Part shown: piece by piece, positions 24,225 through 64,000 of the stretch | How the letters are laid out: every line of letters begins with the position of its first letter | Numbering within the stretch: position 1 is the stretch's first letter | Source of the DNA: Escherichia coli | GTDB taxonomy: Bacteria; Pseudomonadota; Gammaproteobacteria; Enterobacterales; Enterobacteriaceae | Assembly (NCBI RefSeq): GCF_009931435.1 | Contig: NZ_CP043414.1 | Strand: one strand, 5' to 3' | Length of the DNA: 64,000 bases | Program-made: the position numbers and the translations under genes | Notes under the pieces: model-generated | What the model was told of the DNA's origin: nothing | The model's input: only the letters and a program-made list of their open reading frames with translations | Databases searched by the model: none

Positions 24225-26047
24225 GCGCAATTTCCCTGATCAATAGCGGCGTGGCGTGGTTTGTTGCCGCCGCTGTTCTGGCATTTCTCTTTTCTTTTCA
24301 AAAGGCGTTAAGCGGCTGGATTGCCGGAATTGGCGGCGCGGTGGGTAGCCTGTATACGGCAGCCGCAGGCTTCACTGTGCTGACTGGCGCGGTTGGCGTG
24401 AGCGGCGCGTTGTCGCTGGTAAGCTACAATGTGCAAATCTCTCCGCTTAATGCGATTTGGCTGATAACCCTCGGCCTGTGCGGTCTGTTTGTCAGCCTTT
24501 ACAACATTGACTGGCATCGCCATGCGCAGGTGAAATGCAACGGTTTGCAAATCAATATGTTGATGGCTGCTGCCGTCTGTGCCGTCATTGCCAGCAATCT
24601 GGGCATGTTCGTAGTAATGGCAGAAATCATGGCCCTGTGTGCGGTGTTCCTCACCAGCAACAGCAAAGAGGGCAAACTGTGGTTTGCGCTGGGGCGTCTT
24701 GGCACTTTGCTGCTGGCGATTGCTTGCTGGCTGCTGTGGCAACGTTACGGCACGCTGGATCTGCGCCTGCTGGATATGCGCATGCAACAGCTGCCGCTTG
24801 GTTCCGATATCTGGCTGCTCGGTGTGATTGGTTTTGGCCTGCTGGCCGGGATTATCCCGCTGCACGGCTGGGTGCCACAGGCTCATGCTAACGCCTCTGC
24901 GCCAGCTGCCGCGCTGTTTTCCACGGTGGTGATGAAAATTGGCCTGCTGGGTATTTTAACCCTGTCTCTGCTGGGCGGTAATGCGCCGCTGTGGTGGGGA
25001 ATTGCACTTCTGGTACTCGGCATGATCACCGCGTTCGTCGGCGGTTTGTATGCGCTGATGGAGCACAACATTCAGCGTCTGCTGGCTTACCACACTCTGG
25101 AAAATATCGGCATCATCCTGCTGGGGCTGGGCGCTGGCGTAACGGGTATCGCGCTTGAACAACCGGCGCTGATTGCCCTTGGCCTGGTCGGTGGTCTGTA
25201 CCATCTGCTTAACCATAGCCTGTTCAAGAGCGTACTGTTCCTCGGGGCTGGGAGCGTCTGGTTCCGTACCGGTCATCGCGATATCGAAAAACTCGGCGGT
25301 ATTGGCAAAAAAATGCCGGTTATCTCCATCGCCATGTTGGTCGGTCTGATGGCAATGGCTGCGCTGCCACCGCTGAACGGTTTTGCCGGGGAATGGGTTA
25401 TCTATCAATCCTTCTTCAAACTGAGCAATAGTGGCGCGTTTGTTGCCCGTCTTCTCGGGCCGCTGCTCGCCGTGGGGCTGGCAATTACCGGTGCGCTGGC
25501 AGTGATGTGTATGGCGAAAGTTTATGGCGTCACGTTCCTCGGCGCGCCGCGTACCAAAGAAGCCGAAAACGCCACCTGTGCGCCGCTCCTGATGAGCGTA
25601 AGCGTAGTGGCACTGGCGATTTGCTGCGTGATTGGCGGTGTTGCTGCGCCGTGGTTGCTGCCGATGTTGTCTGCTGCCGTACCTCTGCCGCTGGAGCCTG
25701 CTAATACAACCGTTTCTCAACCAATGATCACGTTGCTGCTGATTGCCTGCCCGCTGCTGCCATTCATCATTATGGCGATTTGCAAAGGCGATCGTTTGCC
25801 GTCGCGTTCCCGCGGCGCGGCCTGGGTGTGCGGCTACGACCATGAAAAATCAATGGTGATTACTGCTCACGGTTTTGCCATGCCGGTGAAACAGGCGTTT
25901 GCGCCGGTGCTGAAACTGCGCAAATGGCTGAATCCGGTGTCGCTGGTACCAGGCTGGCAGTGCGAGGGGAGTGCGTTGCTGTTCCGCCGGATGGCGCTGG
26001 TTGAACTGGCGGTGCTGGTGGTGATTATTGTTTCACGAGGAGCCTGA
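24221..26047 (+). CDS. hycC: formate hydrogenlyase membrane subunit HycC
   Basis: 608-aa polytopic membrane ORF, complex I antiporter-like. Confidence 0.92.
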   Translation: MSAISLINSGVAWFVAAAVLAFLFSFQKALSGWIAGIGGAVGSLYTAAAGFTVLTGAVGVSGALSLVSYNVQISPLNAIWLITLGLCGLFVSLYNIDWHRHAQVKCNGLQINMLMAAAVCAVIASNLGMFVVMAEIMALCAVFLTSNSKEGKLWFALGRLGTLLLAIACWLLWQRYGTLDLRLLDMRMQQLPLGSDIWLLGVIGFGLLAGIIPLHGWVPQAHANASAPAAALFSTVVMKIGLLGILTLSLLGGNAPLWWGIALLVLGMITAFVGGLYALMEHNIQRLLAYHTLENIGIILLGLGAGVTGIALEQPALIALGLVGGLYHLLNHSLFKSVLFLGAGSVWFRTGHRDIEKLGGIGKKMPVISIAMLVGLMAMAALPPLNGFAGEWVIYQSFFKLSNSGAFVARLLGPLLAVGLAITGALAVMCMAKVYGVTFLGAPRTKEAENATCAPLLMSVSVVALAICCVIGGVAAPWLLPMLSAAVPLPLEPANTTVSQPMITLLLIACPLLPFIIMAICKGDRLPSRSRGAAWVCGYDHEKSMVITAHGFAMPVKQAFAPVLKLRKWLNPVSLVPGWQCEGSALLFRRMALVELAVLVVIIVSRGA

Positions 26048-26049
26048 GA

Positions 26050-26973
26050 ATGAGTGTTTTATATCCGTTAATTCAGGCGCTGGTGTTATTTGCCGTTGCG
26101 CCGCTGCTCTCCGGTATTACCCGCGTGGCGCGCGCCCGCTTGCATAACCGTCGCGGGCCGGGCGTGTTGCAGGAGTATCGCGACATTATCAAACTGCTGG
26201 GTCGTCAGAGCGTTGGTCCCGATGCCTCCGGCTGGGTGTTCCGCCTGACACCGTACGTAATGGTTGGCGTCATGTTGACTATCGCTACCGCGCTGCCGGT
26301 AGTGACTGTCGGTTCTCCGCTGCCGCAGCTGGGGGATTTGATCACTTTACTGTATCTCTTTGCCATTGCGCGTTTCTTCTTTGCCATTTCTGGTCTGGAT
26401 ACCGGTAGTCCGTTTACTGCTATTGGCGCGAGCCGTGAAGCGATGCTGGGCGTGCTGGTTGAACCGATGCTGCTGCTTGGTCTGTGGGTCGCCGCGCAGG
26501 TGGCTGGTTCCACCAACATCAGCAACATCACCGACACCGTTTATCACTGGCCGCTGAGCCAGAGCATTCCGCTGGTGCTGGCGCTCTGTGCCTGCGCATT
26601 CGCCACCTTTATCGAAATGGGCAAACTGCCGTTCGACCTGGCGGAAGCCGAGCAGGAGCTGCAGGAAGGTCCGCTCTCTGAGTACAGCGGCAGCGGCTTT
26701 GGCGTCATGAAATGGGGTATCAGCCTGAAACAGCTGGTGGTGTTACAGATGTTCGTCGGGGTGTTTATTCCGTGGGGACAAATGGAAACCTTCACTGCCG
26801 GTGGGCTGCTGCTGGCGCTGGTGATTGCCATTGTCAAACTGGTGGTCGGCGTACTGGTTATCGCGCTGTTCGAAAACAGCATGGCCCGTCTGCGTCTTGA
26901 TATTACTCCACGCATTACCTGGGCTGGTTTTGGCTTTGCATTTTTAGCGTTCGTCTCCTTGCTGGCGGCGTGA
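26050..26973 (+). CDS. hycD: formate hydrogenlyase membrane subunit HycD
   Basis: 307-aa membrane ORF, NuoH-like. Confidence 0.92.
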   Translation: MSVLYPLIQALVLFAVAPLLSGITRVARARLHNRRGPGVLQEYRDIIKLLGRQSVGPDASGWVFRLTPYVMVGVMLTIATALPVVTVGSPLPQLGDLITLLYLFAIARFFFAISGLDTGSPFTAIGASREAMLGVLVEPMLLLGLWVAAQVAGSTNISNITDTVYHWPLSQSIPLVLALCACAFATFIEMGKLPFDLAEAEQELQEGPLSEYSGSGFGVMKWGISLKQLVVLQMFVGVFIPWGQMETFTAGGLLLALVIAIVKLVVGVLVIALFENSMARLRLDITPRITWAGFGFAFLAFVSLLAA

Positions 26974-51572: not shown

Positions 51573-52713
<1,141 letters not shown>

Positions 52714-58955: not shown

Positions 58956-60539
<1,584 letters not shown>

Positions 60540-60547
60540 CAGAAAAG

Positions 60548-60620
60548 AAAAAGGCCACTCGTGAGTGGCCAAAATTTCATCTCTGAATTCAGGGATGATG
60601 ATAACAAATGCGCGTCTTTC
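60548..60620 (-). ncRNA. micA: MicA (SraD) sRNA
   Basis: Minus strand reads GAAAGACGCGCATTTGTTATCATCATCCCTGAATTCAGAGATGAAATTTTGGCCACTCACGAGTGGCCTTTTT, matching MicA including its terminator hairpin; lies between gshA and luxS. Confidence 0.9.
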
Positions 60621-60626
60621 ATATAC

Positions 60627-60654
60627 TCAGACTCGCCTGGGAAGAAAGAGTTCA
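60627..60654 (-). promoter_or_regulatory. sigmaE-type promoter of micA
   Basis: Minus strand: TGAACTC (-35) then 16 bp then TCTGA (-10), ending 7 nt before the MicA 5' end. Confidence 0.65.
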
Positions 60655-60688
60655 GAAAATTTTTAAAAAAATTACCGGAGGTGGCTAA

Positions 60689-61204
60689 ATGCCGTTGTTA
60701 GATAGCTTCACAGTCGATCATACCCGGATGGAAGCGCCTGCAGTTCGGGTGGCGAAAACAATGAACACCCCGCATGGCGACGCAATCACCGTGTTCGATC
60801 TGCGCTTCTGCGTGCCGAACAAAGAAGTGATGCCAGAAAGAGGGATCCATACCCTGGAGCACCTGTTTGCTGGTTTTATGCGTAACCATCTTAACGGTAA
60901 TGGCGTTGAGATTATCGATATCTCGCCAATGGGCTGCCGCACCGGTTTTTATATGAGTCTGATTGGTACGCCAGATGAGCAGCGTGTTGCTGATGCCTGG
61001 AAAGCGGCAATGGAAGACGTGCTGAAAGTGCAGGATCAGAATCAGATCCCGGAACTGAACGTCTACCAGTGTGGTACTTATCAGATGCATTCGTTGCAGG
61101 AAGCGCAGGATATTGCGCGTAATATCCTGGAACGTGACGTACGCATCAACAGCAACGAAGAGTTGGCGCTGCCGAAAGAAAAGTTGCAGGAATTGCACAT
61201 CTAG
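60689..61204 (+). CDS. luxS: S-ribosylhomocysteine lyase (AI-2 synthase)
   Basis: 171-aa ORF with the HxxEH metal motif (HTLEHLFAG). Confidence 0.97.
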
Positions 61205-61216
61205 TCAATTGAAGAG

Positions 61217-61247
61217 GCCGGGCAGGTGATATCACCGCCCGGTTTTT
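61217..61247. terminator. hairpin terminator between convergent luxS and the HD-Pnk gene
   Basis: gccgggcaggtga/tatcaccgcccgg followed by ttttta. Confidence 0.6.
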
Positions 61248-61248
61248 A

Positions 61249-62361
61249 TTACCTGTCAGTCACCCGATATTCCACGCTATGTGCTTCATCAGGTTGAGGA
61301 ACTTCCAGCCTTGAGGCCATCCGCATCACGACCGCTTCAGGAACGGCATACTCGCGCCTGGCATTTTGCTGCTTCCATTGCGCCCACGGTACTTCCAGAT
61401 AAACGATTTTTACTCGTGCACCGTAAGCCGTAAACAGACTGATGAGCTGGCTACGCAACTGGCGGGTAATGTTCGTTGCATTCCAGATGAACGGCTTCTT
61501 CTGGCGTAAAAAAACGCGCGCTTCTTCTTTTGCCTGTTGCACAATACGCCCGGTGGCGGTTTTGTCGTCCGGACTGGCATTGATTCGCCGCCGCATATCA
61601 TCAAGGCTGATAACGTTCACTCTCTGGCACTGTTCACTGATAAAGCGATCTTTGCCCATACCCGGTAAACCACACAGCAAAATAACCTCAAAAGATTCAG
61701 CCTCCCAGGGAACAAAATCAGGAGAACTTTGTTCATGGGTCAGGTAATGCCAGCGTGCGGAATCCGAAGCGAATGAACGCACTTTTCCCCAGCATTGTTG
61801 CTCCTGGCAAAATAGCTTGAACAGATCGATGCGTTCCAGCATTGATTGCTGATCATGACAATGGCGACCAAGCAGATCGGCACGAGCAAGCAAAGCGAGC
61901 AGACGCGTGTCGATACGCATTGCAGCCGTGAGCAGCAAACGCTCCGGTTCCGGACGTTCCAGTAACCATAGCGGTAACCCATGCAGACGCACCAGTGCAA
62001 CAATTTGCTCGCGTAGCACGAACGGTGTCGGGATATCGCGCCATAAAATTTGTCGGGCCGTCAATTCACCCCGACGAGCATGACCAGGGGACTGAATACG
62101 TCCGTTTTCCTGCACGGTAGTACTGCGCTTTTCAACGTCATGCAATAACGCCGCCGCCCATAAAATTTCCTGCTGCTGAGCGGGGAGTTGCTGAAACTCA
62201 GCCATCGCAACGAGTGCGTTCAGCACCATTTCAGTATGCACACCAACGTCGCCTTCACCATGATGCTCCGGGTCTTGCGGCGTGTTATGCATATCCTCAA
62301 CCCAGCTAAAACGCTGGCGTAGCGTCGACCAGCGTTTGTCGTCGGTAAGTTGCCAAATCAT
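61249..62361 (-). CDS. HD-domain phosphoesterase fused to a P-loop polynucleotide-kinase-like domain (HD-Pnk-type end-healing enzyme)
   Basis: 370-aa ORF; N-terminal HD signature (…[12 protein letters not shown]… and …AALLHDVEK…); C-terminal P-loop …[15 protein letters not shown]… followed by …[10 protein letters not shown]…; start overlaps the ligase stop (ATGA). Absent from the K-12 luxS-emrB junction. Confidence 0.7.
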
Positions 62362-63065
62362 GACTGTTCTCCATAAGCGAACTCATGGGCCATCCGCGCC
62401 CGTCGCCAGTGGCGTTTCCAGTGCTCGGTGGTTTTGACATGATTTTTGCGTACATACTTGAAGACGTTATGCGAAAAGTCAGCGACGGAAAACGCATCAC
62501 TATTCCGGCTGACAATGCCTTCCAGCGTACAGGGTTGCCCGGTTTGCGTATCCCAGGGATCGAACGCGCCGCGCGCATTGGTCAGCGCCAGAAAATCACG
62601 TTGCCAGCTTTTTTCATCATTCCCCGGCTGCGGGCCGGAGATTTCGGGAACGCAGGGGAAATCAAACAGAGCGGCGTAAAACTGCACCTCTTCCCAGCTC
62701 AGCCACATATCCTGGCAGCGAACGGCAAACAGATAAAAATCCTGCTCCAGGGCGCGATATTCAATCGAATGAACGGCATAAAGATTTTCACCAAACAACT
62801 CCAGATCGCCGAGATCGTTTTTCAGCGATTGCCAGCGTTGGCGAATTTTATAGGTCCATGCCGATTCCGTTGGCGCGGCATGGGAACGGGCAAACACGCC
62901 GAAGCGATTAAGACAGTTATTTTCGCCGTCGAGTTTTTCAGTATGTACCAACTGCGAAATTGCCTGCATATCTTGCCAGTAACTGGCGTTAATGCGGTCA
63001 TCGCTGGTGGTGCCAGGGGAGAAGGGATAATGCCAGGTTCTCCCGTATTTACGTTGGATAATCAT
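62358..63065 (-). CDS. minimal ATP-dependent polynucleotide (RNA/DNA) ligase, nucleotidyltransferase domain only
   Basis: 235-aa ORF with covalent nucleotidyltransferase motifs: motif [10 protein letters not shown] (KxDG lysine), motif [12 protein letters not shown], motif [10 protein letters not shown], motif V FKYVRK. Confidence 0.7.
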
Positions 63066-63287
63066 AATAATCCATTATTTTGTGTGTAATAAATGTACGC
63101 CCGCGTGGGTGCGAGTTATGGGGTTAAAAGAAAAATGTGAGTATCACCCGCGAAAGCGAGGGCGAAGAAAAAAGAGAGTTAACAACCTGAGCGAATGCTC
63201 AGAACCGATTAATGGTGAATGGAAGAGTTTGGGGCGGCGAAAAGATACACCGTTTGAGATGATAAAACAACCGTTTACAGAATGAGC

Positions 63288-63316
63288 AAATAAAAAGGGA
63301 GCCGCAGCTCCCTTTG
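63288..63316 (-). terminator. rho-independent terminator downstream of emrB
   Basis: Minus strand: aaagggagctgcggctcccttt followed by TTATTTG. Confidence 0.65.
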
Positions 63317-63322
63317 ACAACC

Positions 63323-64000
63323 TTAGTGCGCACCGCCTCCGCCGCCACCTGCGCCAAATGGCGGTTTAGCAAACCACACCAGCCCCAGCAGGACGAGGAA
63401 TATCCCGGCTGACATCCAGAAGATCTCATTGGCGGAAATAATCAGCCCCTGATTAGTGATCTGCTGGGCAATCCAGCCTGATGCCTGTTGTTGCGTCATC
63501 CCCAGCCCTTCCAGTTGGCTGTACATCGCCTGAGCGTTCGGGTTAAACGGGTTTACCGACTCGGTTAACTGTGCGTGGTGCATCGACTCGCGGTTGGTCC
63601 ACATAGTCGTCGTAATGGACGTGCCGATAGATCCCGCCAGCGTTCGCGTAAAGTTGGAGAGACTCGATGCCGCCGCCAGTCGTTCCGGTGGCAAACCGGA
63701 CAGCGTAATGGTGGTCAGCGGCATAAAGAAGCAGGCCACCGCGAAGCCCTGGATAAACTGCGGCCAGGCCGACGCACCAAAATCCATACCCGGTTCAAAG
63801 GTATAGGCACGCCAGTAGAAGCAGACGGCATACATAATAAAGCTGAAGGTTACCAGCCGCCGCATATCCAGTTTATGCGCGAAGCGGCCGATAATCGGCG
63901 ACAGGATCACCGGAATAATCCCTACCGGCGCAGAGGCAAGCCCCGCCCAGGTTGCTGTATAGCCGTAGACTTCTTGCAATAACTGCGGCAGCAGAACAAT
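63323..64000 (-). CDS. emrB: multidrug efflux MFS transporter EmrB, C-terminal part (5' end beyond window)
   Basis: Frame continues to the window edge; membrane protein ending …FAKPPFGAGGGGGGAH; convergent with luxS. Confidence 0.85.
   Translation of the reverse strand: MVLLPQLLQEVYGYTATWAGLASAPVGIIPVILSPIIGRFAHKLDMRRLVTFSFIMYAVCFYWRAYTFEPGMDFGASAWPQFIQGFAVACFFMPLTTITLSGLPPERLAAASSLSNFTRTLAGSIGTSITTTMWTNRESMHHAQLTESVNPFNPNAQAMYSQLEGLGMTQQQASGWIAQQITNQGLIISANEIFWMSAGIFLVLLGLVWFAKPPFGAGGGGGGAH

Follow-up and report, generated by a model that had tools for sequence, protein, structure and literature searches.

A two-gene RNA ligase and HD-Pnk cassette between luxS and emrB of Escherichia coli, a candidate RNA end-healing and sealing module

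The closest described relatives of the genes considered here come from Runella and Deinococcus radiodurans. The Runella enzyme HD-Pnk is, by its published description, a 2',3'-phosphoesterase and 5'-OH kinase that also removes 2'-phosphates, and a cited title calls it a 'DNA/RNA end-healing enzyme'; the 3' end of a ligase open reading frame (ORF) overlaps the start of HD-Pnk, and a Tpt1 gene and a methyltransferase-HIT gene adjoin the pair (PMC6097658). On D. radiodurans plasmid MP1 the gene order is DRB0100 (annotated 'RNA ligase family protein'), DRB0099 (TIGR02452) and DRB0098 ('AAA family ATPase'); DRB0098 is a 5' kinase (PMC1997131), and DRB0099 belongs to the PARG-type hydrolases and acts on nucleic-acid ends that carry ADP-ribose (PMC11833690). 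Here we analyze a 64,000-nucleotide stretch of Escherichia coli DNA (contig NZ_CP043414.1 of assembly GCF_009931435.1; hereafter, the window) in which two overlapping genes between luxS and emrB encode a ligase-type protein, LIG, and an HD-Pnk. We lean, with somewhat better than even confidence, towards reading this cassette as a module of two translationally coupled genes that heals and seals RNA ends and acts against ribotoxin-type breaks.

LIG aligns over its full length with DRB0100 (35% identity, E 6e-28), and HD-Pnk aligns over residues 5-361 with DRB0098 (28% identity, E 1e-29). Counterparts in the Cytophagales genera Emticicia, Dyadobacter and Chryseolinea are 54-59% (HD-Pnk) and 51-63% (LIG) identical to the E. 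coli proteins. The E. coli pair is orthologous to Runella HD-Pnk/LIG and to DRB0098/DRB0100, the likeness to Runella resting on the published description and not on Runella sequences. An earlier, sequence-only reading of the window had compared the two genes to the Runella-type pair of an HD-Pnk and a minimal ligase, and profiles, folds, homology to DRB0100 and DRB0098, gene pairing and the literature all agree with that assignment. The cassette is the E. coli representative of an already known family, and its presence in an enterobacterium will not surprise a specialist. The same reading was aware of no characterization in E. coli; our literature search likewise found none, and it returned no paper on the luxS/emrB locus with an RNA ligase.

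The ligase and the end-healing enzyme

LIG matches the Pfam RNA_ligase model PF09414 with an E-value of 7.6e-28 over model positions 2-171 of 171. The covalent nucleotidyltransferase motifs that had been read from its 235 residues are all present (KLDGEN at residues 44-49, LFGENLYAV at 90-98, LEGIVSR at 181-187 and FKYVRK at 202-207), and given the profile match the KxDG is not a chance resemblance. In an alignment of 22 sequences, which includes homologues down to 61% identity, the invariant residues are K44, D46 and G47 of motif I, E93 of motif III, F113 of motif IIIa, E182 and G183 of motif IV, and K203 and R206 of motif V. Thus, LIG has motif I KxDG followed in order by motifs III, IIIa, IV and V, as members of the superfamily do. 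The same alignment reveals two conserved tails, an N-terminal peptide and a C-terminal HVKTxxHWxRxWRRA.

An AlphaFold2 (AF2) model of LIG covers core residues 26-205 with a predicted local distance difference test (pLDDT) score of about 70-96 and a predicted template modeling score (pTM) of 0.77, while both conserved tails are poorly modeled. The predicted structure is this core plus tails of approximately 25-30 residues, with no folded extra domain, which bears out the earlier statement that LIG lacks an OB or other accessory domain. When the core was compared with the PDB using Foldseek, all 29 matches with E <= 0.001 were ATP-dependent RNA ligases, one of them deposited as a putative DNA ligase. 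These matches (probability 1.0, TM score about 0.5) include Trl1-LIG, Naegleria Rnl5, T4 Rnl2, archaeal Rnl3 and T. brucei REL1, and the top match is the fungal Trl1 ligase domain; named DNA ligases match the fold only below the E <= 0.001 set. An NCBIfam search returned no model for LIG, and searches of the PDB by sequence and by profile detected no solved structure for it. Matches of LIG to mollusc hemocyanins and to the designed beta-propeller Tako8 in the PDB are artefacts in which weak repeat matches are summed; their whole-sequence E-values (phmmer/hmmsearch) look significant and are a trap for automated annotation.

We looked beside the nucleotidyltransferase core for the accessory domains that distinguish the described RNA ligase families (C-terminal in Rnl1, Rnl2, Rnl3 and Rnl4, and N-terminal in Rnl5) and found none. 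Since LIG has no accessory domain and matches no PDB chain by sequence or profile, we do not file it under Rnl1-Rnl5. It is a stand-alone nucleotidyltransferase core that belongs to the RNA ligase branch of the covalent nucleotidyltransferase superfamily, outside Rnl1-Rnl5.

HD-Pnk has an N-terminal HD phosphohydrolase domain and a C-terminal P-loop polynucleotide kinase domain with its catalytic set, in keeping with the HD phosphoesterase and P-loop kinase-like domains proposed earlier. Pfam identifies AAA_33 (E 2.2e-31, residues 226-355) and HD (E 0.0016, residues 41-139). In NCBIfam, HDIG (E 2.7e-5) and the HD part of a CCA-repair model (E 1.8e-5) are found, and bacter_Pnkp, the model for the bacterial Pnkp kinase, matches weakly and in the kinase part only. 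Both halves also find fold matches. In the AF2 model (pLDDT 92), the C-terminal half resembles C. thermocellum Pnk with a TM score of 0.74 and also T4 Pnk and mammalian PNKP. Among the PDB matches of this half are PSTK, T4 Pnk and the kinase of C. thermocellum Pnkp. The N-terminal half fits onto part of an A-adding enzyme, its C-terminal region (PDB profile hit 3wfo).

Among 20 diverse homologues, H42, H74, H94, H127 and D162 of the HD half never vary, and at least 90% retain D75; we presume that H42, H74-D75, H94, H127 and D162 are the metal ligands. In the kinase half, K237, D238, D254, R257 and R336 are invariant, and from the sequence K237 would be the P-loop lysine, D254 the general base, R257 the clamp arginine and R336 the lid arginine. 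The P-loop GLPGMGKD (residues 231-238) has D238 in the place of the Walker A Ser/Thr, which had been taken as a possible sign of a divergent or inactive kinase. That suspicion does not hold up. The GK-D sequence is found in 78 of the 80 species loci described below and in all 20 homologues, making it a hallmark of the clade and not a mark of decay, and D254, R257 and R336 are invariant too. A cyanobacterial plasmid copy also has it. Given that the P-loop reads GKN in Variovorax and GKS in Deinococcus, the position after the P-loop lysine is variable in this family, while the other catalytic residues are fixed.

Gene pairing and the luxS/emrB locus

A scan of species-representative genomes yielded 322 HD-Pnk relatives, and we analyzed the best 80, all of which come from Enterobacterales and Bacteroidota. 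In every one of these 80 loci a LIG gene lies upstream of the HD-Pnk gene on the same strand and within 0.8 kb. The two are directly adjacent in 79 and separated by one ORF in the remaining locus. Of 78 loci, 54 have a LIG stop that overlaps the start of HD-Pnk, 33 with the same 4-nt overlap as the window, and 22 more have a gap of no more than 30 nt. In the window, the LIG ORF is immediately upstream of HD-Pnk, both are co-directional on the minus strand, and the LIG stop and HD-Pnk start share an ATGA; the coordinates and lengths given in the sequence-only reading are exact. The overlap is predicted to couple the translation of LIG and HD-Pnk.

RtcB is encoded in 25 of the 80 loci, and in 21 its gene immediately precedes the pair, either by itself or accompanied by prfH or tpt1. 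PrfH is found in 14 loci, with matches above the curated NCBIfam cut-off in both phyla, and the order rtcB-prfH-LIG-HD-Pnk recurs in Serratia, Bacteroides, Mucilaginibacter and Dysgonomonas. The loci with rtcB-prfH directly upstream are L012-L016 (Serratia), L039, L044, L053, L057, L059, L060 and L083 (Bacteroides), L061 and L070; in further Bacteroidota, rtcB alone precedes the pair. Tpt1 occurs in three loci (L063, L070 and L076), and in one of them, from Dysgonomonas, the gene for this RNA 2'-phosphotransferase (L070:4611-5153, plus strand) sits between prfH and LIG. Pairs of genes for RlaP (PF10127) nucleotidyltransferases adjoin the cassette in two Cytophagales loci (L018:3025-4724 and L078).

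The LIG family as a whole comprises 1318 ligase cluster representatives from bacteria, plasmids, huge phages and protist fusions. Distant pairs with a longer sister ligase are found on plasmids of Pseudomonas, Variovorax (with one short ORF between the genes) and a cyanobacterium. The sister-type pair on P. aeruginosa plasmid NZ_OX638702.1 (L093, 752-8518) lies between two identical IS21 (istA-istB) copies and resembles a composite transposon. The 462-kb uncultured megaphage LR756500.1 encodes LIG and HD-Pnk homologues adjacent to one another on one strand (24519-26299, hits H52 and H101). LIG homologues are also present in the jumbo phages Agrobacterium Atu_ph07, Xanthomonas XacN1, Caulobacter CcrSC and LR756502 (one phage ligase locus is L085:5995-6636); in LR756502, the sole such phage with its surroundings examined, no HD-Pnk lies within 6 kb of the ligase. 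Protist proteins of 650-2357 residues combine a LIG-type domain with a second RNA_ligase domain, an AAA_33 kinase and a PTP-SAK phosphatase. These fusions are P0401, P0403, P0409, P0410, P0411, P0431 and P0459, one of them from the euglenid Peranema, and by eye they also contain a 2H-like HxT/HxS module. In P0380, an HNH-like module is fused to LIG.

In E. coli K-12 MG1655, emrB (b2686) and luxS (b2687) are convergent and separated by 63 bp, just as the sequence-only reading had stated. Alignment of the window with the empty site by BLAST shows that homology ends just past the luxS stop and restarts at the emrB stop, and thus a segment of about 2 kb, again as had been proposed, stands in place of the 63-bp spacer. 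Comparison of this junction across E. coli places the segment in 999 of 5426 complete genomes (approximately 18%), always as one chromosomal copy; identity to the window is 90-95% for 982 copies and 95-99% for 17, and reaches 99% for none. The emrB-LIG-HD-Pnk arrangement occupies the same site in seven other enterobacterial species, five of which also have luxS downstream. The seven carriers of emrRAB-LIG-HD-Pnk are another Escherichia species, an Enterobacteriaceae metagenome-assembled genome, Kosakonia, Klebsiella spallanzanii, Phytobacter, an Enterobacter sp. and Superficieibacter.

The segment had been described as inserted, which now appears doubtful. No target-site duplication was found at the junctions in the comparison with the empty site, and a composition test for horizontal transfer gave no deviation. 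The GC content of the cassette (0.51-0.55) is like that of its flanks, and its dS (0.20-0.29) compares with 0.16-0.37 for luxS and emrB in the same genome pairs. Because the site is shared among species and both dS and GC content are flank-like, the K-12 state is more likely a loss, or an allelic replacement through the conserved flanks, than the window is a recent insertion. Between the window and the closest E. coli genome (L001), dS is about 0.01 for HD-Pnk and luxS, 0.11 for LIG and 0.14 for the 3' end of emrB, which suggests a recombination breakpoint near the LIG/HD-Pnk junction.

The dN/dS of the cassette within Escherichia is 0.04-0.19. The window and five of eight sampled E. coli carriers have both genes intact. 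The ligase is a pseudogene in two of the eight, through a frameshift in 'FDA strain Seattle 1946' (L003:3263-3960), which we take to be ATCC 25922, and through an internal stop in VCSW7 (L090:1248-1955); one other, ZJ3920 (L087:756-1868), has the kinase P-loop substitution G236D.

Features of the LIG/HD-Pnk locus, with positions in the window
Feature	Position	Strand	Description and basis
LIG	62358..63065	-	235 aa, stand-alone ATP-dependent RNA-ligase-type nucleotidyltransferase; ORF call, Pfam, alignment, AF2, DRB0100 homology
HD-Pnk	61249..62361	-	370 aa, bifunctional end-healing enzyme; Pfam, NCBIfam, AF2, fold matches, DRB0098 homology
HD phosphoesterase domain	61792..62274	-	about residues 30-190 of HD-Pnk; Pfam, alignment invariants, PDB profile match
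P-loop 5'-OH polynucleotide kinase domain	61276..61692	-	about residues 224-362 of HD-Pnk; Pfam, PDB matches, invariants
ATGA stop/start overlap of LIG and HD-Pnk	62358..62361	-	TCAT on the plus strand; sequence
Candidate sigma-70 promoter	63242..63270	-	-35 TTGTTT at 63270-63265, 17-nt spacer, -10 TATCTT at 63247-63242; alignment
Leader hairpin CUGAGC-loop-GCUCAG	63186..63203	-	alignment, folding, pattern search
emrB intrinsic terminator	63294..63315	-	terminator scan; kept in alignment
GC-rich hairpin between the convergent luxS and HD-Pnk stops	61218..61242		read from sequence; T-run on plus strand
Segment in place of the K-12 63-bp emrB/luxS spacer	61208..63322		BLAST of window against empty site; K-12 annotation

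The spacer between emrB and LIG is 257 nt long. Within it, a TTGnnn-N17-TATnnT pattern is kept in register across an alignment of eight enterobacterial upstream regions, and we regard TTGTTT-N17-TATCTT as a candidate sigma-70 promoter of the cassette, as judged from its sequence; a consensus promoter scan did not pick it up. Approximately 40-60 nt downstream of this promoter-like pair lies the leader hairpin. Across Escherichia, Klebsiella, Kosakonia, Phytobacter, Enterobacter and Superficieibacter, conservation extends over its stem and flanks but not over its loop, which differs in sequence and length; one U-A pair is changed to U-G. The hairpin is present in both the minimum free energy and the centroid folds, and its pattern occurs at 14 enterobacterial emrB-context loci and nowhere else among 91 loci. 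It may be a control element of the cassette. A search of Rfam over 60400-63500 found only the small RNA MicA (60549-60620, minus strand, 83.9 bits), which lies between gshA and luxS as in K-12, and the leader hairpin has no Rfam family. The upstream region of the cassette has no LexA box; a perfect LexA-box-like palindrome, CTGTATGAGCATACAG, is located far from it, at 51575-51590.

The emrB terminator separates emrRAB from the cassette on the same strand. The GC-rich hairpin beyond HD-Pnk, which the terminator scan missed owing to a one-base bulge, is probably the luxS terminator and possibly bidirectional. Two further ORFs in the region were set aside. A 234-aa ORF (62385..63089, plus strand) opposite the LIG coding sequence is most simply an antisense shadow ORF, and a 67-aa ORF (63082..63285, plus strand) has non-triplet indels across genera in the alignment of the region.

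Possible functions of the cassette

The mechanism that we favor builds on what is described above: which domains the proteins have and how they fold, which catalytic residues are conserved, the orthology to studied proteins, and the pairing and genomic company of the genes. A transesterifying ribonuclease (a ribotoxin, a colicin, a contact-dependent growth inhibition (CDI) toxin or an anticodon nuclease) would leave a 5'-OH and a 2',3'-cyclic or 3'-phosphate. The C-terminal P-loop domain of HD-Pnk would phosphorylate the 5'-OH, with K237 binding the NTP, D254 activating the 5'-OH, and R257 and R336 holding the substrate and the beta-phosphate; kinase activity is documented for DRB0098 and for the Runella enzyme. 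The HD metal center would strip the 2',3'-cyclic, 2' or 3' phosphate, an activity documented for the Runella enzyme only, and so produce 5'-PO4 and 3'-OH ends. LIG, whose relatives self-adenylylate, would be charged by ATP on Lys44 and would pass the AMP to the 5'-PO4, and attack by the 3'-OH would close the break. We infer that sealing takes place, that LIG works in a complex with HD-Pnk and/or only on structured RNA (a broken tRNA loop or ribosomal rRNA), and that ribotoxin-cut tRNA or rRNA is the target. That LIG would depend on a partner is suggested by its lack of an accessory domain, by its translational coupling to HD-Pnk in nearly all loci and by Pnkp-Hen1, a precedent in which the Pnkp ligase module is inactive alone and needs its partner Hen1 to seal. 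A need for a partner or for structured RNA would explain why isolated ligases adenylylate without sealing generic substrates.

A role in RNA repair is supported by the RtcB, PrfH, Tpt1 and RlaP neighbors, by the eukaryotic ligase-kinase-phosphatase fusions and by the low dN/dS, and RtcB2-PrfH has been shown experimentally to rescue and repair colicin E3-cut ribosomes (PMC9304027, PMC9223846). A number of observations weigh on the other side. DRB0100 forms an AMP adduct and ligates neither DNA nor RNA (Blasius et al., PMC1997131), and Runella LIG makes ligase-AMP and sealed no 3'-OH/5'-PO4 substrate that was tried (PMC6097658); both family ligases thus failed to seal the substrates tested. The DRB0100-DRB0098 operon is reportedly induced by DNA damage (PMC11833690), and D. 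radiodurans HD-Pnk, in the words of a paper title, 'abets resistance to ionizing radiation and mitomycin C'. No homologue of rtcB, prfH or tpt1 was found anywhere in the 64-kb window, so that the ribotoxin link rests on other taxa, and neither protein matched any family in PADLOC-DB 2.0 (0 families at E <= 0.01). In addition, the ligase pseudogenes in two and the P-loop mutant in one of the eight sampled E. coli genomes indicate that the module is dispensable in some lineages. The earlier proposal of healing and sealing is therefore supported as far as the domain identities go, while its sealing half is still inferred, since family ligases have twice self-adenylylated without ligating. The proposal of an anti-ribotoxin module finds RNA-repair neighbors in other genomes and none in the window, and we found nothing in support of the suggested link to an accessory HigB endoribonuclease.

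The Deinococcus observations would be expected of a DNA-break module, in which HD-Pnk would clean the 3'-phosphate/5'-OH ends left by oxidation or radiation and LIG, with helpers, would seal the nicks. The DNA damage induction of the operon and the resistance named in the title point this way, as do the word 'DNA' in the title given to the Runella enzyme and the match of the kinase fold to mammalian PNKP, which is a DNA repair enzyme. We nevertheless consider a DNA role improbable, because the 29 best fold matches of LIG are all RNA ligases (one has been deposited under the label putative DNA ligase) and rank ahead of any named DNA ligase, Pfam places LIG in RNA_ligase, the recurring neighbors are RNA-specific, no LexA box precedes the cassette, and DRB0100 did not ligate DNA. 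The two independent reports of adenylylation without sealing might instead mean that LIG is an adenylyltransferase and not a strand joiner, one that halts at step 2 or uses a non-canonical acceptor. It could, for example, place an AppRNA cap or mark on the 5'-phosphate made by HD-Pnk, or it could need a 2'-phosphate or an ADP-ribosylated end. This would fit with the absence of an OB or other accessory domain, the Tpt1 neighbors (in three loci here and in Runella), the PARG-type gene between the Deinococcus pair and the top fold match, given that the fungal Trl1 ligase domain requires a 2'-phosphate. It seems as hard to credit as a DNA role, however, since none of the five ligase motifs varies, not even at the motif IV and V residues used in the later steps, and only 3 of 80 loci have Tpt1; that HD-Pnk by its published description removes 2'-phosphates also argues against a 2'-PO4 requirement.

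Decay of the cassette into a remnant with no current function in E. coli is much the least probable explanation. Its absence from 82% of complete genomes, the frameshift in 'FDA strain Seattle 1946', the internal stop in VCSW7 and G236D in ZJ3920 would all be expected of a remnant. Against this, neither gene is disrupted in the window or in most of the sampled carriers, a dN/dS of 0.04-0.19 is maintained, all invariant catalytic residues are kept, and the promoter-like and leader elements are conserved across genera.

Returning to RNA repair, we tentatively raise a more specific possibility, about which we are doubtful: LIG/HD-Pnk might be the ATP-dependent second arm of a response to ribotoxin damage that is begun by RtcB-PrfH. 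HD-Pnk would re-tailor the ends when the cyclic or 3'-phosphate needed by RtcB is lost, or when tRNA and not 16S rRNA is cut, and LIG, active only in its complex with HD-Pnk, would seal ribosome-bound rRNA or the tRNA anticodon loop. If so, E. coli strains whose cassette is intact would withstand colicins or CDI RNase toxins that are lethal to K-12, and DRB0100 and Runella LIG would be inactive in vitro for want of both a partner and a substrate.

Although the HD-Pnk/LIG family is widespread, its ligase has resisted two attempts to demonstrate sealing. Intact copies in E. coli bring the question to an organism in which deletions, challenge with colicins or CDI toxins and ribosome biochemistry are routine, and natural mutants such as ATCC 25922, with its frameshifted ligase, are available. 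The recurrent rtcB-prfH-(tpt1)-LIG-HD-Pnk order is a testable lead to the missing substrate, and the linkage to Tpt1 bears on the old question of what purpose Tpt1 serves in bacteria. The annotations that the two genes have in about 1000 complete E. coli genomes, 'AAA family ATPase' and 'ATP-binding protein', could also be changed.

Comparison with known systems

The cassette closely resembles the HD-Pnk/LIG pair of Runella (Munir & Shuman 2017), with which it shares an HD domain at the N-terminus and a kinase at the C-terminus of one protein and an overlapping ligase ORF upstream. The Runella cluster differs in having Tpt1 and methyltransferase-HIT genes, both of which are lacking in the window. 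Likewise, DRB0100 (LigB)-DRB0099-DRB0098 of Deinococcus has the same gene order, overlapping ORFs and full-length homology, but a third gene (TIGR02452/PARG) lies between the pair, HD-Pnk is 413 residues long with a GSGKS P-loop, and the phenotypes are linked to DNA damage.

Similar combinations of activities are found in systems assembled from other parts. T4 Pnkp with Rnl1 (and Rnl2) undoes a ribotoxin cut by means of a separate 5' kinase/3' phosphatase and an ATP-dependent RNA ligase, and T4 Pnk shares its kinase fold and K/D/R catalytic set with HD-Pnk. The T4 phosphatase, however, is a DxD acylphosphatase and not an HD enzyme, and Rnl1 and Rnl2 have C-terminal domains that are absent from LIG. 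Pnkp-Hen1 also combines kinase, phosphatase and ligase activities for the repair of RNA breaks, but Pnkp is a single polypeptide with a metallophosphoesterase and an Rnl4-type ligase, and the cassette has no methyltransferase. In fungi and plants, Trl1 (LIG-KIN-CPD) with Tpt1 provides ligase, P-loop kinase and cyclic-phosphate esterase functions; no structure matches LIG better than its ligase domain, and Tpt1 accompanies the bacterial cassette in some genomes. Trl1 differs in its 2H phosphodiesterase and its need for a 2'-PO4 end, which the bacterial HD esterase reportedly removes, and it is only about 15% identical to LIG in sequence.

RtcB2-PrfH is, like the cassette, a sporadic accessory module, and in Serratia and many Bacteroidota its genes directly precede the pair in the same orientation. 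RtcB chemistry differs in using GTP and 3'-P/5'-OH ends, RtcB2-PrfH is unlinked to the cassette in the window, and the functional connection between the two is one of neighborhood only. The eukaryotic PTP-SAK 'Swiss Army Knife' proteins are giant single polypeptides of protists with a DSP-PTP phosphatase in place of HD, but they contain a domain that is 37-41% identical to LIG and has the same terminal peptides.

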